From assembly GCA_003599175.1 (NCBI GenBank), contig QZIY01000013.1, positions 1 to 57,289 on the forward strand: a DNA stretch of 57,289 bases, in the 5' to 3' direction. Below the pieces are notes generated by a model. It did no database searches and was not told the DNA's origin. It saw only the letters and a program-made list of their open reading frames with translations. Both the position numbers and the translations under genes were made by a program. Positions 350-42,171 of this stretch are shown piece by piece (positions within the stretch are counted from its first letter, which is position 1; every line of letters starts with the position of its first letter). The DNA comes from Candidatus Parcubacteria bacterium (GTDB lineage: Bacteria > Patescibacteriota > Minisyncoccia > Phycocordibacterales > UBA2100).

Positions 350-1724
<1,375 letters not shown>

Positions 1725-1768
1725 ATTTCCGCTACACCAAATCGTAGCTATAGCTACACTTTGGTGTA

Positions 1769-2650
1769 TCAGAGCAAGGTGCGAATTTTCTTAAAAATGG
1801 CGGCGTTTGAATTTGGGAAGAACCACTCTATATCTTTATTGCGGCGCCAGTAGGTTTTCTGGCGTTTTGCATACTGCCAAATCGCGCTCTGTAATTCCGA
1901 TTCCATTTCCTCTTTTGAAATAATTCCTTTGAGATGTCGTGCGAGTGAACGATACTCAAGCCCGAGAGATTCCATGCGTTTGTAAGAAAGCCCCGCTTTC
2001 TTGAGACGCTTCGCCTCCGCAATCATTCCCGTCTTTATACGATCACGAAGTCGTACATCGATCCGCCTGCGCAATTCGTCCCGCTCCGGCGCAATCCCAA
2101 CCCATATCACGTCATACCCCCTAAGGTCGGACCTTAGGGGGTCGGACTTTGGAGACTGGGCGATCTCGAGCGCGCGGATAAGGCGGCGTTTGTTGTGCTG
2201 ATCGATCGACTGCGCTCGATTTTGATCACGACGTTTGAGTATTGTGAACAACTGTTCCGCGGTTTTTTTGTCGAGCTCCGCGCGAAGTTTTTTATTTGCG
2301 GGGACGTCCGAGAGGGTAATGCGGCCGACGAGTGCATCGATATAGAATCCGGTGCCACCACAGATGATCGGAAGTTTGCCGCGAGATGCTATGTCGTCGA
2401 TCGCTTTCCGTCCGCGCACGACAAAATCATGTGCGGTGAACGTCTTTTTTGGTGAGTAGACGTCGAGAAGGTGATGCGGTACGCCTTTCATCTCACGCTT
2501 GGTGATTTTGCCTGTGCCGATATCGAGTCCCTTGTAGACCTGCCTTGAATCGGCAGAAATGACCTCGCCGCTAAGCTTTTTGGCGAGTTCGACGGCGAGA
2601 GCGCTTTTGCCCGATGAGGTCGGGCCAACGATTACGATAATTTTCTGCAT
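1769..2650 (-). CDS. miaA: tRNA dimethylallyltransferase
   Basis: 293 aa. P-loop GPTSSGKSALAVELAK, then ISADSRQVYKGLDIGTGK, typical of MiaA. Confidence 0.95.
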   Translation of the reverse strand: MQKIIVIVGPTSSGKSALAVELAKKLSGEVISADSRQVYKGLDIGTGKITKREMKGVPHHLLDVYSPKKTFTAHDFVVRGRKAIDDIASRGKLPIICGGTGFYIDALVGRITLSDVPANKKLRAELDKKTAEQLFTILKRRDQNRAQSIDQHNKRRLIRALEIAQSPKSDPLRSDLRGYDVIWVGIAPERDELRRRIDVRLRDRIKTGMIAEAKRLKKAGLSYKRMESLGLEYRSLARHLKGIISKEEMESELQSAIWQYAKRQKTYWRRNKDIEWFFPNSNAAIFKKIRTLL

Positions 2651-2661
2651 AGGAGAGGAAG

Positions 2662-3246
2662 TCAGCGTTTGTGTAGACCTATCAATGCAATAAGTTTCTC
2701 GACTTCAAGTTTACGTGCAAAACGTACAGTATATTTGGGTCGCCGTAAATCCATCGTTTTTGACACCATTGGCCGAAGTCCTAAACACTTCGACATTTCA
2801 GCCACGTCTTCAATAAGTTCTTGGGTTTGATTCGTAAAATTGATCATACGATAACCTCGGTCTTCGTAAATACTCCCGTCAGTTTGTATAAGACCTCGGA
2901 GACATGCTGACATGTAAACGGTGTTGCATTTTATCCAATCTGGTACGCGGGCTTTTTGGGCATATTTAGTACCCAAGCCGACCTTCCACGGCATTAATTC
3001 ACTCAGCTTATTTGAGTATATTGATATATTATGGAAAGTGTTCTTTCCTGGAACTCTGACTATCGAAATGCGATTATTGGGCAAGATCATCTTCAGATTC
3101 TTCTGAATTTCCTCGGATACACCTGAATACTTTGTATCGCAGGTAATTCTTAATCGTATCGCTCGACTGACTTTTGATAAGTTACCGTCCCCCAATGCGA
3201 CGCCTACGATATACGCTAAAGCGACCTTTTCGGGGTCAGCATACAT
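2662..3246 (-). CDS. free-standing double-motif LAGLIDADG homing endonuclease (194 aa)
   Basis: Two LAGLIDADG motifs (YIVGVALGDGNLS and LRGLIQTDGSIY). Start moved to the Met at 3246 because the upstream part of the tracked ORF (to 3396) is the tRNA-Leu gene. Visibly AT-richer than neighbours. Confidence 0.8.
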   Translation of the reverse strand: MYADPEKVALAYIVGVALGDGNLSKVSRAIRLRITCDTKYSGVSEEIQKNLKMILPNNRISIVRVPGKNTFHNISIYSNKLSELMPWKVGLGTKYAQKARVPDWIKCNTVYMSACLRGLIQTDGSIYEDRGYRMINFTNQTQELIEDVAEMSKCLGLRPMVSKTMDLRRPKYTVRFARKLEVEKLIALIGLHKR

Positions 3247-3248
3247 AA

Positions 3249-3329
3249 TGCCGGAGGAGGGACTCGAACCCTCACGAGTTGCCTCAATCGATTTTGAGTC
3301 GATCGCGTATACCATTCCGCCACTCCGGC
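3249..3329 (-). tRNA. tRNA-Leu (anticodon CAA), class II with long variable arm
   Basis: 81-nt cloverleaf on the minus strand: acceptor GCCGGAG/CTCCGGC, anticodon stem ATCGA/TCGAT with loop CTCAAAA, variable arm GAG-GCAA-CTC, T arm GAGGG-TTCGAGT-CCCTC, discriminator A. Confidence 0.85.
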
Positions 3330-3379
3330 AATAATGGCTAGTGTACGAGTTTTGCGACGAAAAACAAATATATGCAACA

Positions 3380-4520: not shown

Positions 4521-6059
4521 CGAATTTTTCTTCTCGCGCGCTGCAAGCGCCGCACGGATATGCTTTTTCGCCATGTTGGTCTTTGCGATGTCGTGCCACT
4601 TGCGCGACGGCTTGCCGAGCGGGCGATTGATGATTTCTACCACATCGCCGTTTCGAAGCTCAGTGTCGAGCGCGACCATCTTGCCGTTGACCTTGGCACC
4701 CGACATTGTGTTGCCGATATCTGAGTGCACTGCGTATGCAAAATCGATCGGTGTCGCCGAGACGGGCAAGTCGATGACATCGCCCTTGGGGGTGAAGACG
4801 AAAATGCGGTGACTGAAAAAGTCAGTCTTCAGCGTATCGAGGTATTCCTCCGATGCAGCGCTGCCGCCGTGCGCGTGTGAGAGCTCTTTGACCCACTGCG
4901 GGATCGTTTCCGCCGCATCGTCTTTTTCACGCAGCGTCGTCTCCGTACCTTTCCCTAGCGGGAAAAATTGCCGTACCCAATCGAGAGAGCCGCGGCGCGG
5001 CACATTGCCTTCCTGTGTTTCCTTGTATGCGAGGTGCGAGGCGATACCGAACTGCGCTTCTTGGTGTTGACCTTCCGTGCGAAGCTGGATTTCGAGCGCC
5101 CCTCCGTCGCCTGTGTAGACGGTCGTGTGAATTGATTGATAGCCGTTGGGCTTTGGGAAGGCAATATAATCCTTGATCTTGCCTGGTACCGGGCGCCAGT
5201 GGGCATGAATGATGCCGAGTGCGCTATAGCAATCCGCAACTGCGGGGAAAATGACGCGGAGCGCGATGATGTCGTAGATTTTGTTAATATCCCAATCTTT
5301 GCGCTCGAGTTTGCGGTATAAGCTGTAGAGTCCTTTCTTGCGTGCCTCCATGCTGAAATTGCGCAGACCCGCATCGGCAAACTCGCGCTTCAGTACTTTT
5401 TCGGTTTTCTCTAAGCGTTTTTCGTTCTCATGGCCGCGTTCTTTCAAAAGCTCGCGCGTCTTTTCATATTCTTCAGGGTAGCCGTAGGGGAATGCAGCGT
5501 CTTCCAATTCCTGCTTCAAAACGCTCATACCGAGTCGGTCCGCTATCGGCGCATAAATTTCGAGCGTTTCGAGCGCGATGCGTTGGCGTTTCTCGGGCTT
5601 GGGGACGTGTTTCAGGGTCTTCGCGTTGTGGAGACGATCCATCAATTTCACAATCAAGACACGGATATCCTTTGCGGTGGCGGCGAAGAGATTGCGGAGC
5701 GATTCGGTATGGCGTTCGAGCCCGCGATAGCGGAGCGCGCCGAGCTTTGTCACTCCTTCGACCAGATACAAGACTTCAGCACCGAAGTGTTCCTCAATCT
5801 CCTTGGCGCCGACTCCCGCGTCTTCGATGGTGTCGTGCAAGAGTCCCGCTGCTATTGTCTGTGCGTCGAGCCCTGCCTCGGCGAGGAAGAAGCCCACATT
5901 GGTCGTGTGCACGGTGTATGGGTCGCCCGAATAGCGCTTCTGATTTTTGTGTGCTTCGACTGAGAAATCATATGCTCGCGTCACCAGATCCACGTCACTC
6001 TCCGTCTTGTTCGGCATCGCGTCGATGATTGTTTTGAGTGGGATGGTTTGATTGAGCAT
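4518..6059 (-). CDS. RelA/SpoT homologue (HD hydrolase + synthetase + TGS), truncated after TGS
   Basis: 513 aa. HD motif LLHDTIEDAG, synthetase region YQSIHTTV, TGS region IFVFTPKGDVIDLP. Ends about 60 aa after TGS, so no ZFD/ACT regions. Confidence 0.9.
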   Translation of the reverse strand: MLNQTIPLKTIIDAMPNKTESDVDLVTRAYDFSVEAHKNQKRYSGDPYTVHTTNVGFFLAEAGLDAQTIAAGLLHDTIEDAGVGAKEIEEHFGAEVLYLVEGVTKLGALRYRGLERHTESLRNLFAATAKDIRVLIVKLMDRLHNAKTLKHVPKPEKRQRIALETLEIYAPIADRLGMSVLKQELEDAAFPYGYPEEYEKTRELLKERGHENEKRLEKTEKVLKREFADAGLRNFSMEARKKGLYSLYRKLERKDWDINKIYDIIALRVIFPAVADCYSALGIIHAHWRPVPGKIKDYIAFPKPNGYQSIHTTVYTGDGGALEIQLRTEGQHQEAQFGIASHLAYKETQEGNVPRRGSLDWVRQFFPLGKGTETTLREKDDAAETIPQWVKELSHAHGGSAASEEYLDTLKTDFFSHRIFVFTPKGDVIDLPVSATPIDFAYAVHSDIGNTMSGAKVNGKMVALDTELRNGDVVEIINRPLGKPSRKWHDIAKTNMAKKHIRAALAAREKKNS

Positions 6060-13904: not shown

Positions 13905-13943
13905 CCTTGCCTTTTTCGTGAAAGAATGCTAATATGGTGCATT

Positions 13944-14822
13944 ATGGCTCGGAAATTCAGTGTATTCGATCAAGTTGCAAAACTGCGCGAACGCTACTAT
14001 CGGGCGTTGCCGGGCAAAGAGTCGCTTATCAAAGTCATTAATGAAGCGGAGATTCCCGAACACGTATACAATTCCAATGCTATTGAAAACAGCACGTTGT
14101 CGCTTGAGGAAACTGAAAAAATTCTTCTTCAAATCGATCTCGATCGTTTTGTGAGCGAGCGCGAACTCTTCGAGGCAAAAAACCTCGCGCGTGTAATGGA
14201 TTATATTGATACAAAAGCGAAAGACGCGGAATTGTCGTTGTCACAGATCCTCTTTTTACATAAAATGCTCATTTCAAATATTCGCGACGAAATCGCGGGG
14301 CGGTTTCGCGCGGAAGGCGAGTGGGTGCGCGTGGGGACCCATATCGGGGCGGATCCGAATGATATTGATCGCTTGCTGACTGATATGCTTATCGAATACC
14401 ACGCCACTAAGGATGCACATATCGTTTCGCGGATTGCAAAATTGCATCTTTCATTCGAATATATCCATCCGTTTTGCGATGGCAATGGCCGTATTGGACG
14501 TGCTGTAAACAACTATGAGCTTATTCGTGAAGGATATGTTCCGATAAACATTGCATTCGCACATCGCGCACGCTACTACGAAGCATTCCGAGAACACGAA
14601 CAGCGCGGGAGCGTGCACATCATGGAAGAAATTATCGGACGCGCGCTCACGGAAAGCTACCACAGACGACTCGCATATATGGAAGGAAAACACGTCATCT
14701 CTCTTCCGGAATACGCGAAAGCTCATAAGCAGAGCTTGTCGAATGTAATCAACAAAGCGCATCGCCAGACGATTCCCGCATTTCGTGAAAAAGGGGAATG
14801 GAAGATAGCTGCCGATGCATAA
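13944..14822 (+). CDS. fic: Fic-domain protein (AMPylase-type), class II with N-terminal inhibitory motif
   Basis: Fic motif HPFCDGNGRIGR. Auto-inhibitory (S/T)xxxE(G/N) present as SNAIEN near the N-terminus. Confidence 0.9.
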   Translation: MARKFSVFDQVAKLRERYYRALPGKESLIKVINEAEIPEHVYNSNAIENSTLSLEETEKILLQIDLDRFVSERELFEAKNLARVMDYIDTKAKDAELSLSQILFLHKMLISNIRDEIAGRFRAEGEWVRVGTHIGADPNDIDRLLTDMLIEYHATKDAHIVSRIAKLHLSFEYIHPFCDGNGRIGRAVNNYELIREGYVPINIAFAHRARYYEAFREHEQRGSVHIMEEIIGRALTESYHRRLAYMEGKHVISLPEYAKAHKQSLSNVINKAHRQTIPAFREKGEWKIAADA

Positions 14823-17211: not shown

Positions 17212-20200
17212 ATGAAGCAGTACGATCATACAAAGATCGAAAAAAAGTGGCAGAAAGCTTGGGCGGATGCGGAACAGTATAAGACTCCCGATCAGGTAAA
17301 AGGAAAAGATAATTTCTACCTCCTCGTCGAATTCCCGTACCCATCGGGCAATCTCCACGTAGGACACTGGTACGCTTTTGCGGTGCCCGATATGCTCGCG
17401 CGCTTGCACCGGATGAACGGGAAAAATGTGATGTATCCGATCGGCTTCGATGCTTTTGGCCTACCGGCAGAAAACGCAGCGATCAAAAATAAACTCAATC
17501 CGCGCACATGGACCGAGCAGAATATCGCGCACATGAAAAATCAGATTGCGTCGATGGGTACATCTTTCGACCTCTCGCGCATGGTTTCCACCATCGACCC
17601 TGCGTACTACAAATGGACACAGTGGCAGTTCCTCCAGTTCTTCAAAAAAGGATTGGCGTATCAGAAAGACACGCCGGTCAATTGGTGCCCCAATGACAAG
17701 ACCGTCTTGGCCAACGAGCAGGTGGTGACCCGTTCGACAAGCTCAGGGCAAGTGGCAACATGCGAACGCTGTGGCCACGAAGTGGTGCAAAAGCAAATGC
17801 TCCAGTGGAACATCAAGATCACCGACTATGCCGATCGGCTCGTCGATGATCTCGACCCCCTGGATTGGCCGAATGAAATCAAAGAATCCCAGCGCAATTG
17901 GATCGGCCGCTCGGAAGGTGCGGAGATCGATTTCCCGCTTGAAATTGGCGACAACAAAAAATACAAGTATGTGATTTTGCATGGCTTCCAGAGCAGCCCC
18001 GATCGTCCACGTTGGCTGTGGCTCAAATCAGAACTCGAAAAATCAGGGCACGAAGTCGTTATGCCTTCGCTTCCGAATCCTGATGACCCGAGCGAACAGG
18101 AGTGGGTTGAAACAGCCATCAATGCCACGACATATGATGAAAACACGGTACTGGTTGGACATAGTCTTGGCGCTGTCACCGCCCTTAAGGTCGTAGAGCG
18201 ACTCAAGAAACCAATTTTCCGTCTTGTCACGGTCGGTGGATTCGCGAACCGCGAATTTAAAGATAAGAAACGTCCGTTTGAGGAAACGTGGAAATGGGAA
18301 TTCGACGGAGAAAAGATTCGCTCAAAAACTAAAGCAATAACCGTTTTACATGATCCCAAAGATCACGCGATTTCAGATGCGCAAGCCAAAAAACTTGCCG
18401 ATTTACTTGGTGTTGCGGTAACCACAGGCACCTCAACAAAGTCGCATTTTGCAGGCGATAAGGAACCAGATGTGTTGATGTGGCTACGCCCGACGATTCG
18501 TGTCTTTACGACGCGCCCTGACACCCTCTTCGGCGCCACCTATCTCGTCCTTGCTCCTGAACATCCGTGGGTCGCGCTCGCGCTTCAGCACAAGACCGTA
18601 CTGAAGAACAACGACGAAGTGCAGAAGTACGTCGATAAGGCTAATAAGAAGACTGATCTGGAGAGGCAGGAGAGCAAGGAGAAAACAGGCGTGAAGCTCG
18701 AGGGAATCGAAGCGATCAATCCGGCGAGTGGAGAAAAAATCCCGCTCTTCGTGGCCGACTACGTACTTAGTCACTATGGCACCGGCGCGATTATGGCCGT
18801 GCCCGCGCACGACGAGCGCGACTTTGAATTTGCGCAAAAATTCGATTTGCCAATTCCGCAAGTCGTTGCTCCCGTTATTCACGTGACAAAGGGCGGGGAC
18901 GCGGTACGAGAAGGCGAGCCAATGAAGAAGCGCGATGCGGTGATGGCAATAGTGAAGCATTGGGAGAAGGATGAATACCTATGTATCGAATGGAAGGAGT
19001 TTGATGAGATTCGCACCTTTATCTCAGGAGGTATTGAGGAGGGCGAAGATGTTGTTGAGGCAGGGAAGCGAGAGATTGCGGAAGAATCGGGTTACAAGAA
19101 CGCAAAGTTCATCCGGAGCGTAGGACAGGTGCAATTTGTCGAGTTCTACCACCAGGCGAAGAAGGGGAACGTTCGAGCCAAAATGCACTACCTCTATTTT
19201 GAGTTGGAAAATGGAGAGCAAGAACCGCTTTCGGCGGAGGAAGATGCAAAGCACTCAATCGTGTGGAAGAAGCGCGACGAAGTCAGATCATTTCTTACCA
19301 TCAACGAAATCGGTCTCATTTGGGACCAGCTCGAACATGGCAATAGGCCCTACGTGGGTGCTGGAGAACTCATCAATTCGGGTGAATTTGATGGTCTTTC
19401 TATTGAGGGAGCGAAAAAGAAAATGACAGCCGCGTTTGGACGGGAAAAGAAGACCTATCGATTGCGAGATTGGATCGTGTCGCGACAGCGCTATTGGGGT
19501 GTGCCGATCCCTATTGTGCACTGCGATAATTGCGGCCCTGTGGCCGTGCCAGATGATCAGCTCCCTGTCAGGTTGCCGGATGTGGAGGATTATCTGCCGA
19601 GCGGGGAAGGGAAGTCACCGCTTGCGAAAGTCGATTCATTCGTACATACCACATGCCCGAAATGCGGCGGGGAAGCGAAGCGGGAGACAGACACACTCGA
19701 TACATTCGTCGATTCATCCTGGTACTTCCTCCGCTATACCGATCCGCATAACAGTGAACAGTTTGCAGAGAACAGTAAACAGAAGAATTGGATGCCGATC
19801 GATTTATATAGCGGCGGCGCAGAACACACGACGATGCACGTCCTCTACAGCCGTTTCTGGCACAAGGCGCTTTTCGATCTCGGCCTCGTCGCCGATGCGG
19901 AGCCGTATACGCGCCGCATGAATCGCAGCATCATTCTTGGTCCTGATGGTCAGAAAATGAGTAAATCCCGTGGCAACGTGATCGATCCTGATGCGGTCGT
20001 CGCACAGCTTGGCGCCGATACGGTGCGCATGTATTTGGCATTTATTGGGCCGTACAACGAAGTGGGGAGCTATCCGTGGAATCCCGATGGGGTGGTGGGC
20101 GTCCGCCGCTTTTTGGAGCGCTTATGGAAGGCGCAGCAATATGTGCAAAAAGAGGAAGTGGCTTCGCTTCAGAATGTGCTCCACAAGACGATCAAAAAAG

Positions 20201-20669: not shown

Positions 20670-22277
20670 TTACTTTGCGGCGGAAATACTGACACCAGCG
20701 TCAGTATCTTTGACTGTATAACCTTTCTTCTCAATCTGTTCTCGCAGCTCGTCGGCTTTCGTCCATTCTTTACTTGCCCGCGCCGCCTCCCGCTCGTCGA
20801 CAAGCGCCTTCACATCTGCTGGTAATGCAGCAACGCTGATTTCTTTGCCCGATAAGCGCTGCGCCAGTTCATCCGGTTCGTGGAGATTGAGACCGAGCAC
20901 CTTGTCCATTTCGATTATTCCTGCCAAGAGATCTCCGGCGGAGAGCGACGTATCTTTCGTCATATCCCACAATACCGCGAGTGCGCCCGGCGTATCGAGA
21001 TCGTCGTTGATGTGCGAGCGGAATTTTTTCATCCATGCGGCGGGTGGGGTGCCGGGATTATTGTTGGATGCTGCGACTGCTTTCCCCGCAATCGAAAGAA
21101 GATTCGCAAGCGCATTTTGCGATGCGGTGAGTGCCTCCCAGCTAAAATTCGACGGTGTACGGTAGTGCGCGCCAAGGAAGAGGTAGCGGAGCGCCAGGGG
21201 GTGAAATCCTTTCTCGATGATTTCCGAAAGATAGACGACATTGCCCTGCGACTTGGCGATCTTGCCACCGTCGATCTGGATATGCTGACGATGGAGCCAA
21301 AAGCGTGAGAAGGGGCGCTTGCCGGTCGCGCATTCAGACTGCGCGATTTCGTTGTTGTGGTGGATCGGGATGTGCTCGATGCCGCCCGTGTGGATATCGA
21401 TTTTCTCCCCGAGACAGACGCGCGCCATCGCAGAGCATTCGATGTGCCAGCCGGGATACCCCTTGCCCCACGGGGAGTCCCACCCCTGAAGTCGCCCAGA
21501 AATCTCATCTGCATCGTTGCGGGTCCCTTGCGCCGCCCTCGTTGTATTCTTTGATACGCCTCGTGCGCCGCCTTTCCCGCGCCTCGCAGCTGAAGCTTTC
21601 TGAGCTACTTCAGCAACACGGCTGAATTTCCATAGTGCAAAATCCGCCGCGTTGCGTTTTCCTTCCACCACGGCGACGCGTGCACCTTCTTTCTGCCCCT
21701 CGCGATCAATACCGCCGAGCTGTCCGTAGCGAGGGAACTTTTCGGTATCAAAATAGACGCCATCAGCGATTTTGTATGCATACCCTTTTTCCTCGAGTGT
21801 TTTGATCATCGCGATTTGTGCAGGGATGTGATCACTTGCGCGCGGGAATTGGATGCGAGATGTATCGATATTGAGTTTGCCAATGTCCTCAATAAAAATG
21901 CCCGCGTACTTGTCGGCGAGGAGGCGCATATTTTCGAGTGTGAGCTTCATCTTTTCGCGCTTGAGACCGAGTGTCATTTTGTCCTCGCCCGCGTCTGCAT
22001 CCGACGAAAGGTGCCCGACATCGGTGATATTGATGACCTGCTTCACTTCGTAGCCGTTTTGTTCGAGCGTACGGCGCAGAATATCGGTGAAGACGAACAT
22101 CGAGAGATTGCCGATGTGCTGCACGCCATAGACCGTGGGTCCGCAGTTGTACATGCGGACCCTTTTTGCGGGTGCGGGCAGCTGAAAGGCCTCTTTTTGC
22201 TTGGTGAGTGTGTTGTAGAAGGAGAGGGAAGAGACGTGGCCAAAGGGGAGCTTTTGAAAGAGTTTCTGGAACCACAT
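20670..22277 (-). CDS. cysS: cysteinyl-tRNA synthetase with a basic low-complexity insertion
   Basis: MYNCGPTVYGVQHIGN (HIGH), WDSPWGKGYPGWHIECSAM, KIAKSQGN (KMSKS-like). 535 aa. Confidence 0.95.
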   Translation of the reverse strand: MWFQKLFQKLPFGHVSSLSFYNTLTKQKEAFQLPAPAKRVRMYNCGPTVYGVQHIGNLSMFVFTDILRRTLEQNGYEVKQVINITDVGHLSSDADAGEDKMTLGLKREKMKLTLENMRLLADKYAGIFIEDIGKLNIDTSRIQFPRASDHIPAQIAMIKTLEEKGYAYKIADGVYFDTEKFPRYGQLGGIDREGQKEGARVAVVEGKRNAADFALWKFSRVAEVAQKASAARRGKGGARGVSKNTTRAAQGTRNDADEISGRLQGWDSPWGKGYPGWHIECSAMARVCLGEKIDIHTGGIEHIPIHHNNEIAQSECATGKRPFSRFWLHRQHIQIDGGKIAKSQGNVVYLSEIIEKGFHPLALRYLFLGAHYRTPSNFSWEALTASQNALANLLSIAGKAVAASNNNPGTPPAAWMKKFRSHINDDLDTPGALAVLWDMTKDTSLSAGDLLAGIIEMDKVLGLNLHEPDELAQRLSGKEISVAALPADVKALVDEREAARASKEWTKADELREQIEKKGYTVKDTDAGVSISAAK

Positions 22278-29223: not shown

Positions 29224-29709
29224 TTAATCTTTCGAGTCGATACTTTGGCCGTTCAAAATTTCTCTAAATTGCTCCAGCGGTATCGTTCTTTCCTCTAACC
29301 AGATTGCCAAATCATCTACAGCTTTTTCTATTGGTAATTCTGTTTGAGCGAGCCACAGAGCTTTGTCACGTAATTCACCGCGACCAGCAACGACCGCTAC
29401 ATTGTTTATGTATAGAAAAACGATTGTGGCAGCAACGGAAAGCCTTTTGTTCCCGTTACCAAACGCGTGATTTCTATTAAAGGCATAAAACGTGATGGCG
29501 GCTTTTTTGTAGATTCCCGAATAAAGTTCCTGACCAAAGACTGCCTGTCTCGGCAAATTCAAACAAGAATCAAGTTTCGCTTGATCGTGGTCCTCATATA
29601 AGCCCATCGGCTCCTCCTCTTGGAAGAGCCGAGATGCTATATCGTGGCAAAGATCCTTCAGGATCTCTTTGTCGAGATAATTAACGGGAGAATCGTTCTC
29701 CTTTATCAT
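29224..29709 (-). CDS. doc: Doc (death-on-curing) family Fic-fold toxin
   Basis: Doc-type motif HAFGNGNKR. Confidence 0.9.
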   Translation of the reverse strand: MIKENDSPVNYLDKEILKDLCHDIASRLFQEEEPMGLYEDHDQAKLDSCLNLPRQAVFGQELYSGIYKKAAITFYAFNRNHAFGNGNKRLSVAATIVFLYINNVAVVAGRGELRDKALWLAQTELPIEKAVDDLAIWLEERTIPLEQFREILNGQSIDSKD

Positions 29710-40770: not shown

Positions 40771-42171
40771 CTATTTATCCGACTCTTTTTTTGTCGCGAT
40801 ACCAAGTTCCTTGAGCTGTTTATCGACAAGCGGTTTCGGGGCTTTCATGACTGCCGTCTGACCACCACGGGTCATCGGGAACGCCTGCACTTCACGCAGG
40901 TACGATTCTCCCGTGAGGTTCATCACGTTGCGTTCGATACCAAGCGCGATGCCGCCATGCGGTGGCGCGCCGTATTTGAATGCTTCGAGCATGTGGCCCA
41001 CGCTTGTCTCCGTCTCCTCCGGCGAGTAGCCCATTACCTCGTACGTGGCGCGCAGAATTTCTGGGCGATGCGCACGGATTGAGCCGCCGCCTGTTTCGAA
41101 TCCGTTGCAGACGAGGTCGTACTGCGTGGTCAAAATGTTTGCAATGTCCTCTTTGTTTAAGAGTTTCTCCACGTGCTCTTTGATCGGCATGGAGAACGGA
41201 TTGTGCGTAAAGGTCCAGCCACCCTCGTCGGTTTTTTCGAAGAATGGGAATTTGTAGACCCATGCGTATGCCAAGACACCGCGCGCTTTCTCTTCTTCGG
41301 TGCGAAGATCGAATTTGTCCGCACCAAACTTTTCCATCGCCTCCTGGTAGGTAAATCGCGGGAACGGTTTTTCTTTGATCTCAAAGCCGAGAGACTCTAC
41401 CGTTTCGGTAATCATGCGCTCGATCATGTTCATCACATCCTCCTGCTCCACGAACGACATCTCGATATCTACCTGGCTATGCTCAAAGCCGCGATCGGCA
41501 CGGAGATCTTCGTCGCGCACGCAACGCGCGATTTGGAAGTAGCGCTCAAAGCCGCCGACCATGAGGAGCTGCTTGTACTGCTGTGGTGATTGCGGAAGTG
41601 CGTAGAAGTGGCCCGGGTGGAGGCGTGACGGCACGACGAAATCGCGCGAACCCTCGGGCGTCGATTCGGTGAGAATCGGCGTCTCGATTTCGATGAATTT
41701 ATTTTTAAAGAGGAATTCGCGCACTTTTTGTACAAAGGCGCTTCGCATACGCATATTTTTCTGCATGCGGTCGCTGCGCAAATCGAGATAGCGGTACTTG
41801 AGACGTACCTCCTCCCCTACCCCGGCCGTATCGCTCGAGATGTCGAATGGTACGGGCTCGGATGCATTCAAAATCTCGATCGCTTCGATCTGCAATTCGA
41901 TATCGCCGTTTTGTTTATCGGCCTGGACATTTTTCTCCGGCCGCGCATTGACGAGACCACTCACTTGTACGGCATATTGCTGACGCACATCCTTGGCCAC
42001 ATCCATCGCAGGGCTCTTCGGCAACACGACGCCCTGTACGACGCCGGTCATATCCTTGAAATCGAAGAAAACCATCTTGCCCTGATCGCGACGGACATCT
42101 ACCCAGCCACAAATCGATACTTGCGAGCCAGTGTGTTCTTTCAAATCTCCGATATATACCCGATCTTTCAT
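40771..42171 (-). CDS. aspS: aspartyl-tRNA synthetase, bacterial-type motifs but no GAD insertion (466 aa)
   Basis: OB-fold N-terminus, FQIARCVRDEDLRADR (bacterial AspRS motif 2 region), GGGSIR, and PPHGGIALGIER motif 3. Confidence 0.88.
   Translation of the reverse strand: MKDRVYIGDLKEHTGSQVSICGWVDVRRDQGKMVFFDFKDMTGVVQGVVLPKSPAMDVAKDVRQQYAVQVSGLVNARPEKNVQADKQNGDIELQIEAIEILNASEPVPFDISSDTAGVGEEVRLKYRYLDLRSDRMQKNMRMRSAFVQKVREFLFKNKFIEIETPILTESTPEGSRDFVVPSRLHPGHFYALPQSPQQYKQLLMVGGFERYFQIARCVRDEDLRADRGFEHSQVDIEMSFVEQEDVMNMIERMITETVESLGFEIKEKPFPRFTYQEAMEKFGADKFDLRTEEEKARGVLAYAWVYKFPFFEKTDEGGWTFTHNPFSMPIKEHVEKLLNKEDIANILTTQYDLVCNGFETGGGSIRAHRPEILRATYEVMGYSPEETETSVGHMLEAFKYGAPPHGGIALGIERNVMNLTGESYLREVQAFPMTRGGQTAVMKAPKPLVDKQLKELGIATKKESDK

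Follow-up and report, generated by a model that had tools for sequence, protein, structure and literature searches.

Introduction

Why does a leucyl-tRNA synthetase (LeuRS) hold a Nudix hydrolase domain within its editing module, and what might that domain do there? The question is raised by the leuS gene on contig QZIY01000013.1 (assembly GCA_003599175.1) of a Candidatus Parcubacteria bacterium, an ultra-small and Kaiserbacteria-like member of the Patescibacteria. A contig stretch of 57,289 nucleotides was analyzed (hereafter the window). To our knowledge, new catalytic domains in the editing module of aminoacyl-tRNA synthetases (aaRSs) are rare in bacteria, and synthetases are among the most conserved enzymes. 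The initial annotation of this DNA had described a full-length Nudix fold with a textbook Nudix box in the LeuRS, next to connective polypeptide 1 (CP1), the editing domain. Herein, we report that the Nudix domain lies inside the CP1 fold and belongs to a dedicated family associated with LeuRS across Patescibacteria. We tentatively propose that it is a tethered hydrolase of dinucleoside polyphosphates.

Results and Discussion

A Nudix domain with a conserved active site

Residues ~553–710 of the LeuRS are predicted to fold as a Nudix pyrophosphohydrolase domain whose catalytic box is intact (Table 1). The Pfam NUDIX profile (PF00293) matched residues 589–691 with 38.5 bits (gathering score, 21.1; E 1.4e-9). 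The box, GGIEEGEDVVEAGKREIAEESGY, fits the pattern GX5EX7REUXEEXGU with Tyr as the last U, and Tyr occupies this position in 241 of 276 family members. This was the sole Nudix-box match in a six-frame translation of the window. An AlphaFold2 (AF2) model of the 158-residue insert, made from a 24-sequence alignment, had a mean predicted local distance difference test (pLDDT) of 93.6 and a predicted template modeling score (pTM) of 0.87, with the box on the expected helix at insert positions 57–69. When this model was searched against the PDB with Foldseek, 587 Nudix matches were obtained at E <= 1e-3, with template modeling (TM) scores of 0.7–0.82. The profile score, the box with its REx2EE core, and the alpha/beta/alpha sandwich carrying the box on a loop-helix-loop place the domain in the Nudix superfamily. 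With these results, the fold and box described in the initial annotation were recovered. Its coordinates for the box were exact, and its interval of 18883–19356 is essentially the same stretch as the insert in Table 1; the envelope of the family hidden Markov model (HMM) spans residues 561–707 (nt 18892–19332). The 158 aa that it had placed between two conserved LeuRS segments is correct as the length of residues 558–715, but the distance from FDLPI (ending at residue 548) to GELINSG (starting at residue 718) is 169 aa.

The catalytic residues are strongly conserved. Among 276 family copies, G1 was kept in 271, R15 in 238, E16 in 271, E19 in 268, and E20 in 272, with the metal-binding glutamates retained in about 97–99% of copies. 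In 72 full-length homologues, G606, E621, E624, E625, and G627 were invariant, and the full E/R/E/E/E set was kept in 185 of the 211 copies located in CP1. Outside these residues, the domain varies more than its host. Across 100 full-length homologues, mean identity to the window copy was 42% in the Nudix segment versus 66–76% in the LeuRS core. Since the scaffold drifts while the metal-ligand glutamates are held, the metal-binding site is under purifying selection. A working enzyme, not a spacer, would show such a pattern.

Two hydrolases nested in CP1 of a complete LeuRS

The host LeuRS is complete and of the housekeeping type, with both synthetic and editing motifs intact. The 1136-aa protein scored 946.7 bits against the NCBIfam equivalog TIGR00396 (leuS_bact, cut-off 548.4), and together with the HIGH, KMSKS, Thr-rich, and AHDxRD motifs this identifies it as a bacterial LeuRS. 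Pfam detected the class-I catalytic domain (tRNA-synt_1, residues 12–231), a serine hydrolase (Ser_hydrolase PF06821, 253–412, 42.4 bits), the editing domain (PF13603, 428–556, covering only profile positions 22–144 of 185), the NUDIX domain, and the anticodon-binding domain (Anticodon_1). In 72 homologues, the HIGH motif (H49–H52) and KMSKS (915–919) were invariant, H52 nearly so. Of the CP1 editing residues, T434, R435, T438, and G523–G525 were likewise invariant, with near-invariance at the aspartates D534 and D537. In the serine hydrolase, a putative triad is formed by S318 and H412, both invariant, and the nearly invariant D381.

Table 1. Positions of leuS and its parts in the window
Feature	Residues	Nucleotides	Strand	Description or basis
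leuS open reading frame	1136 aa + stop codon	17212..20622	+	Bacterial-type LeuRS with two nested foreign domains
Serine-hydrolase insert (alpha/beta-hydrolase, PF06821)	245-428	17944..18495	+	Pfam, gap in 1h3n alignment, full-length model
CP1, first part, with TTRPDT (Thr-rich) and AHDERD motifs	429-552	18496..18867	+	PF13603; aligns to T. thermophilus 243-362
Nudix insert	553-710	18868..19341	+	PF00293, gap in 1h3n alignment, AF2, Foldseek
Nudix box GGIEEGEDVVEAGKREIAEESGY	606-628	19027..19095	+	Motif position; metal-binding R620-E621...E624-E625
CP1, last part (...GELINSGEFDGL...RLRDWIVSRQRYWG), leading back into the catalytic core	711-~775	19342..19536	+	1h3n alignment

Alignment with the LeuRS of Thermus thermophilus (1h3n, E 8e-210) gave four collinear blocks. 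Window residues 1–244 align to T. thermophilus 1–237, 429–552 to 243–362, 711–910 to 374–579, and 915–1133 to 637–875. The Nudix insert stands in place of an 11-residue surface loop (T. thermophilus 363–373) within CP1, and the serine-hydrolase insert replaces residues 238–242, just past the first CP1 strand. Isolated CP1 crystal constructs (3o0a and 2ajg) start ~24–33 residues before the serine-hydrolase site and reach ~53 residues beyond the Nudix site. Because the CP1 blocks and the isolated constructs extend past both sites, both hydrolases are nested inside the CP1 fold. The earlier description, in which the Nudix domain came right after the editing domain and CP1 was flanked by two foreign hydrolases, is corrected accordingly. 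Its view of three hydrolytic modules in a row agrees with our result, as the triad residues of the serine hydrolase and the CP1 motifs are conserved and the sequence order is serine hydrolase, CP1, and Nudix. A full-length AF2 model made from a 72-sequence alignment had a mean pLDDT of 83.5 and a pTM of 0.65. Its serine hydrolase, CP1, and Nudix segments were modeled at ~85–96 pLDDT, with ~88–96 for the serine hydrolase and 89–96 for the Nudix domain.

Compared with canonical bacterial LeuRS (T. thermophilus 1h3n/2byt and Escherichia coli 4aq7), the window enzyme shares every catalytic and editing motif as well as collinearity, but differs in the two hydrolases nested in CP1 and in lacking the leucine-specific domain. 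This domain (T. thermophilus ~580–636) accounts for ~57 residues missing just before KMSKS, where window residues 910 and 915 (nt ~19939–19956) correspond to T. thermophilus 579 and 637. In four other LeuRS proteins (P0072, P0080, P0148, and P0019), a serine hydrolase lies at a different site, after window position ~775–788.

Recurrence across Patescibacteria

The protein identical to the window LeuRS is deposited at NCBI as a NUDIX domain-containing protein of Candidatus Parcubacteria bacterium; an exact search for it among called genes gave no match. Its best 120 LeuRS relatives were drawn from NCBI, JGI, ENA, and Logan and came from Candidatus Kaiserbacteria, Paceibacterota, Minisyncoccota, and Patescibacteria. 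These proteins mostly combine the serine hydrolase, CP1, and NUDIX, and they form more than 100 clusters at 90% identity. Variants with only the Nudix domain (~950–975 aa) or only the hydrolase (~975–995 aa) were also present. We then scanned one genome per GTDB species with two family-specific peptide patterns taken from a 5-sequence alignment, which makes the counts lower bounds. At least 79 loci were found in Nomura-, Kaiser-, Vogel-, Taylor-, Jorgensen-, Morani-, Doudna-, and Buchananbacteria, CPR2, and other lineages. The Nudix domain was inside leuS at 78 of the 79 loci, and a serine hydrolase was also present at 19, making the serine-hydrolase insert the less widespread of the two. A syntenic contig (L001, YchF-DUF5671-leuS-cysS-corA) carries a leuS with the Nudix insert and without the serine hydrolase. 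At L001:7163-10053 (ENA), leuS and the ATP-synthase genes are frameshifted many times, probably reflecting a noisy long-read assembly.

This recurrence bears on whether the fusion could be an assembly product. The sole point in favor of a chimera or mis-join is that the contig was assembled from a metagenome. The leuS frame runs unbroken through the insert, and the LeuRS blocks on its two sides are collinear; the identical protein is deposited at NCBI; and the same architecture appears in the >100 clusters (90% identity) from independent studies and in at least 78 species genomes. The Nudix insert also shows no clear composition break, with a GC content of 0.49–0.51 versus 0.52–0.55 in the remaining gene. 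Because the architecture recurs across independent clusters and species genomes, an artifact is refuted, and we regard it as practically out of the question. The concern raised in the initial annotation about read support at the junctions is thus moot. A recent horizontal transfer of the insert was also considered and rejected, again because the GC contents show no clear break.

LeuRS, the Nudix fold, and the alpha/beta-hydrolase fold are all well known, and some of these proteins carry the automated label of NUDIX domain-containing. What is unusual is that a single dedicated Nudix family is tied to LeuRS throughout the Patescibacteria recurrently, at multiple sites, and by operon linkage. Full-text literature searches on LeuRS and aaRSs, on synthetases of the candidate phyla radiation (CPR), and on diadenosine tetraphosphate (Ap4A) returned neither a description nor an experimental study of any synthetase that bears a Nudix domain.

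A Nudix family dedicated to synthetases

The Nudix insert alone was searched exhaustively with HMMER against 1.84 billion representatives. A total of 342 cluster representatives matched, 170 of them with E below 1e-10. When the best 150 matches were mapped onto LeuRS, nearly all long proteins proved to be LeuRS. Family members share the motifs GxDAxR...R.AV.AIVKHW.EDKYL, NR.AHF, and H..VW. We classified 274 domain copies by insertion site, using window residue numbering. Most copies (211) occupy the CP1 loop as in the window (site B). Fourteen lie between residues 215 and 216, ahead of CP1 and often as a tandem pair (site A), 4 take the position of the window serine hydrolase (site A'), and 5 are at residues ~812–821 (site C). 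The remaining 40 copies have no LeuRS flank and are mostly proteins of 154–190 aa. One LeuRS (P0004) carries three Nudix copies. Two or three copies were also seen in other LeuRS proteins, comprising P0005, P0007, and P0010, which like P0004 have tandems before CP1, as well as L063, L065, L066, and L070. In P0004, P0005, P0007, and P0010, the second tandem copies carry Q or D in place of E7 and A, K, or Q in place of R15, while the three metal-binding glutamates are retained. These changes may indicate a pseudo-dimer.

Genomic context was examined for seven free copies, which are annotated in their sources as generic MutT/NUDIX proteins. Four of the seven (L002, the P0021 locus, L003, and L004/L005) are located 2–10 nt upstream of leuS on the same strand. 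An embedded copy is also present in the leuS that follows at L002 and at the P0021 locus. At L005, the free Nudix gene (492–977) is followed by a leuS (980–3217) without any insert, and this two-gene operon is the probable ancestral state. Near the free Nudix-leuS pair on L003, a free PF06821 protein is encoded at L003:276-896 (-). The fifth copy (P0057) belongs to a metS-tatD-Nudix-...-HD-...-Nudix-leuS cluster. At L006:4001-8549 (Candidatus Doudnabacteria JAHFJI010000005.1), the same-strand gene order is metS, an unknown gene, tatD, a Nudix gene of the LeuRS-associated family, small open reading frames (ORFs), an HD/YfbR-like gene, an unknown gene, a second Nudix gene of another family, and leuS.

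The family also extends to prolyl-tRNA synthetase (ProRS). The sixth free copy (P0079, L009:1533-2084) lies two genes upstream of a ProRS gene (L009:2762-4693) whose product itself embeds a member of the same Nudix family, with a family-HMM score of 191.7 bits. In this ProRS, the Nudix domain sits between the anticodon-binding domain (293–379) and the C-terminal domain (575–643). A search with the ProRS-embedded domain returned only one further protein (P0036). The seventh free copy (P0060, L007/L008) has no synthetase neighbor. The Nudix-synthetase linkage is therefore strong but not universal. Free and embedded copies are interleaved by nearest-neighbor similarity, which suggests several fusion or insertion events. 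In sum, this is a dedicated synthetase-associated Nudix family, found at four or more LeuRS sites, in tandems, once in ProRS, and as free operonic copies.

Kinship to characterized Nudix enzymes

The Foldseek search placed the Ap4A hydrolase aq_158 of Aquifex aeolicus (3i7u, TM 0.70/0.82) at the top. Further top matches were Mycobacterium smegmatis MutT1, the Mycobacterium tuberculosis diadenosine polyphosphatase Rv2985, and the Chlamydia Ap4A hydrolase CT771 (4mpo). RNA-bound RppH (4s2x) and an oomycete decapping Nudix enzyme (8zjb) were also matched. Asymmetric diadenosine polyphosphate (ApnA) hydrolases filled most of the top ranks and stood above RppH, with the E-values of ADPRase, NudB, DIPP, and RppH all within about one order of magnitude. 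A profile search against PDB sequences instead gave the AvrM14 Nudix effectors first (4e-8, nearly the whole domain aligned) and the lupin Ap4A hydrolase (1f3y) next. AvrM14 is an enzyme that we take to be an mRNA-decapping hydrolase. Among the NCBIfam models, two RppH models were matched by more members than any other (24/24 and 23/24, best E 7e-11), yet the window insert scored 26.6 and 21.9 bits where the equivalog cut-offs are 118 (NF001936) and 116 (NF001938), and all 24 members fell below them. Models of NudB, NudE, MutT, and ADPRase were matched too in the PDB-profile and NCBIfam searches. Because the RppH equivalog cut-off is not reached, the domain is filed under the Nudix superfamily and not as RppH. 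Among known enzymes, it is closest to the ApnA hydrolases, RppH, and the decapping Nudix enzymes; it reaches no membership cut-off of these groups. From the three independent comparisons, we infer a Nudix clade that probably cuts polyphosphate bridges at nucleotide or RNA 5' ends.

Residues after the box are also conserved. The window copy has F at +17 and Y at +18, positions at which F/Y occurs in 258 and Y/F in 254 of the 276 copies, respectively, and a Lys at +22 is conserved family-wide. A Tyr located 16–18 positions after the box is, as we understand it, a marker of ApnA hydrolases, and we treat it as a lead and not as a test. With the ApnA hydrolases, the insert shares the fold (TM up to 0.82), the canonical box, the +17/+18 aromatics, and a single domain of ~145 aa. 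It differs from them in identity (17–22%) and in its own signature motifs. The ApnA hydrolases are free-standing or, in the case of MutT1 and Rv2985, fused to a histidine-phosphatase domain, and they are not known as parts of a synthetase. RppH/NudH (E. coli 4s2x) and AvrM14 (flax rust, 8dp8/8dp9) provide the most consistent curated-family match and the best sequence-profile match, respectively, but the insert scores 4–5 times below the RppH cut-offs and is embedded in an aminoacyl-tRNA synthetase. An isoleucyl-tRNA synthetase (IleRS) with an N-acetyltransferase domain (NCBIfam NF040702) is comparable as a housekeeping class-I synthetase with an extra enzyme domain. Its added domain is of another type, however, whereas the LeuRS Nudix is inserted in the editing domain, uses multiple sites, and also exists as a free operonic partner.

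Proposed function and its alternatives

We favor, tentatively and at somewhat less than an even chance, a tethered hydrolase of the ApnA-hydrolase/RppH type, acting most probably on Ap4A-type dinucleoside polyphosphates. Synthetases form Ap4A or Ap4N when an enzyme-bound aminoacyl-adenylate reacts with ATP or another nucleoside triphosphate (NTP). Because these compounds are made from the bound adenylate, a tethered ApnA hydrolase would be the simplest mechanism. The family, in its ancestral state probably a small gene translationally coupled just upstream of leuS, has entered LeuRS repeatedly, using four or more sites and in some cases as tandem copies, and has entered a ProRS on at least one occasion. 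On the synthetase, the reaction of bound adenylate with ATP or another NTP would yield Ap4A-type dinucleoside polyphosphates, whose polyphosphate bridge the Mg2+-dependent Nudix domain would cleave. Tethering would thereby allow these by-products to be removed at their place of synthesis, while canonical post-transfer editing by CP1 would be retained beside the Nudix activity. In the 57 kb of the genome covered by the window, no second Nudix gene and no ApaH, YqeK, or HIT gene was found among the 40 largest ORFs, and the six-frame scan gave no second Nudix box. A role of the insert as a stand-in for a missing alarmone system was considered and rejected, as a Rel homologue (HD_4 + RelA_SpoT + TGS) is encoded in the same window.

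Several observations weigh against this proposal. The insert resembles ApnA hydrolases and RppH at superfamily level only (15–24% identity), the Foldseek E-values of many Nudix classes fall inside a single order of magnitude, and the RppH equivalog cut-offs are far off (26.6 bits vs 118). LeuRS is not among the strongest Ap4A producers, and the class-II D/K/N-type synthetase in the window (40774–42171) carries no Nudix domain; the domain is also absent from the window's CysRS, GluRS, and Trp/Tyr-type enzyme. Because LeuRS is not a prominent producer and the D/K/N-type synthetase is without Nudix, local Ap4A clearance alone does not explain the preference for LeuRS. The full-length model, with a pTM of only 0.65, provides no geometric tie from the Nudix domain to the sites of synthesis or editing. 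Finally, E7 is changed to Q and R15 to A in some copies, notably tandem second copies and some free copies.

The same kinship data can be read toward RNA. An RppH- or decapping-like enzyme would act on RNA whose 5' end bears a polyphosphate linkage (as 5'-ppp or as an Np4N or NAD cap), and its target could be the tRNA on the synthetase, whose 5' end adjoins the 3' CCA end entering CP1. RppH models matched by 24/24 and 23/24 members (best E 7e-11), AvrM14 as the best profile match in PDB sequences over nearly the whole domain, and RNA-bound RppH (4s2x) and the oomycete decapping enzyme (8zjb) among the Foldseek matches are consistent with such an activity, as is the placement of three insertion sites (out of four or more) in or beside CP1, the module that handles the acceptor end. 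We nevertheless consider it unlikely, though a serious contender, since RNase P normally leaves bacterial tRNAs with a 5' monophosphate, the scores are far under the RppH cut-offs, ApnA hydrolases are structurally ahead of RppH, and the ProRS copy lies between the anticodon-binding and C-terminal domains, away from the acceptor end. Alternatively, the domain might be a housekeeping Nudix enzyme carried as a genetic passenger, with general sanitizing activity toward 8-oxo-(d)GTP, ADP-ribose, or NAD(H) that is uncoupled from aminoacylation. The free gene immediately upstream of leuS would be a donor next door, and this reading also fits the diverse insertion sites, the interleaving of free and embedded copies in sequence space, the fast-evolving scaffold, the generic MutT/NUDIX annotation of free copies, and the additional matches to NudB, NudE, MutT, and ADPRase models. 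Its route would be co-transcription with leuS followed by fusion into permissive loops through local rearrangement in streamlined genomes. Against a passenger, which we hold to be an unlikely though reasonable explanation, the fusion is persistent, repeated, and specific to LeuRS (plus one ProRS) in many Patescibacteria lineages. Free and embedded copies are retained together and tandems occur, which is more than a neutral passenger would lead one to expect, and free copies are translationally coupled to leuS with gaps of 2–4 nt, as is typical of complex partners.

In a bolder version, rather unlikely in our judgment, a dedicated Nudix partner would be physically complexed with LeuRS, free or built-in, and would add a new catalytic step to the aminoacylation cycle. 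It might cleave a polyphosphate-linked or capped 5' end of the held tRNA, or obligatorily destroy a nucleotide signal made by the synthetase. If so, LeuRS would be a three-hydrolase quality-control or signaling hub and not a passive fusion. A catalytically silent module, serving LeuRS as a ligand sensor, a dimerization unit, or a structural domain in the manner of NrtR-type regulators, would agree with the Nudix-Nudix pairing suggested by tandem and free-plus-embedded copies and with the loss of E7 and R15 in some of them. Noncatalytic Nudix domains typically lose the metal-binding glutamates, however, whereas here all three are kept in 268–272 of 276 copies and nothing in the window copy deviates from the canonical set, making this option very unlikely. 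Pre-transfer editing in cis, in which the Nudix domain would hydrolyze noncognate aminoacyl-adenylates (Nva-AMP or Ile-AMP) leaving the synthetic site, is suggested by position only, as the domain sits in the module with which an editing synthetase proofreads; ProRS, the other Nudix host, likewise belongs to the synthetases prone to error. With its single phosphate, aminoacyl-AMP is an acyl-phosphate anhydride that has no diphosphate bridge and is not among the nucleoside diphosphate-X compounds. It is an atypical Nudix substrate, and we know of no Nudix enzyme that hydrolyzes it, while HIT-family enzymes do. The post-transfer residues of CP1 are fully conserved, leaving nothing that needs compensation, and the free-standing forms and the ProRS site place the domain near no synthetic site. 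On account of the missing diphosphate bridge and the intact CP1 editing, we rank this reading low, as extremely unlikely. Of the activities put forward in the initial annotation, Ap4A hydrolysis and RNA decapping fit the closest relatives, but clearing of adenylates is unsupported given the atypical chemistry and the conserved CP1 editing.

Other features of the window

Beside leuS, the window encodes a CysRS of 535 aa at 20670–22277 (-). Its catalytic-domain Pfam match is in two stretches, split by a low-complexity, basic insert of ~50 aa (...AAQKASAARRGKGGARGVSKNTTRAAQGTRND...). No extra domains were detected in the GluRS, the class-II D/K/N-type synthetase, or the Trp/Tyr-type synthetase. 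The Rel/SpoT homologue and two Fic/DOC-family genes are located at 4521–6059 (-), 13926–14822 (+), and 29224–29709 (-). Only two RNA genes were detected in the window, tRNA-Trp(CCA) and tRNA-Leu(CAA), with listed positions 350–421 (+) and 3248–3330 (-).

Significance

The association of this Nudix family with LeuRS amounts to a Rosetta-stone signal, pointing to a functional partnership of tRNA charging with hydrolysis of nucleotide polyphosphates or of RNA 5' ends. It offers an entry point to how genome-reduced bacteria may dispose of synthetase by-products such as Ap4A, to possible RNA-end processing on a synthetase, and to the grafting of domains into essential enzymes. Even if the domain is only a passenger, it would illustrate the packing of small enzymes into essential genes in the course of genome streamlining.

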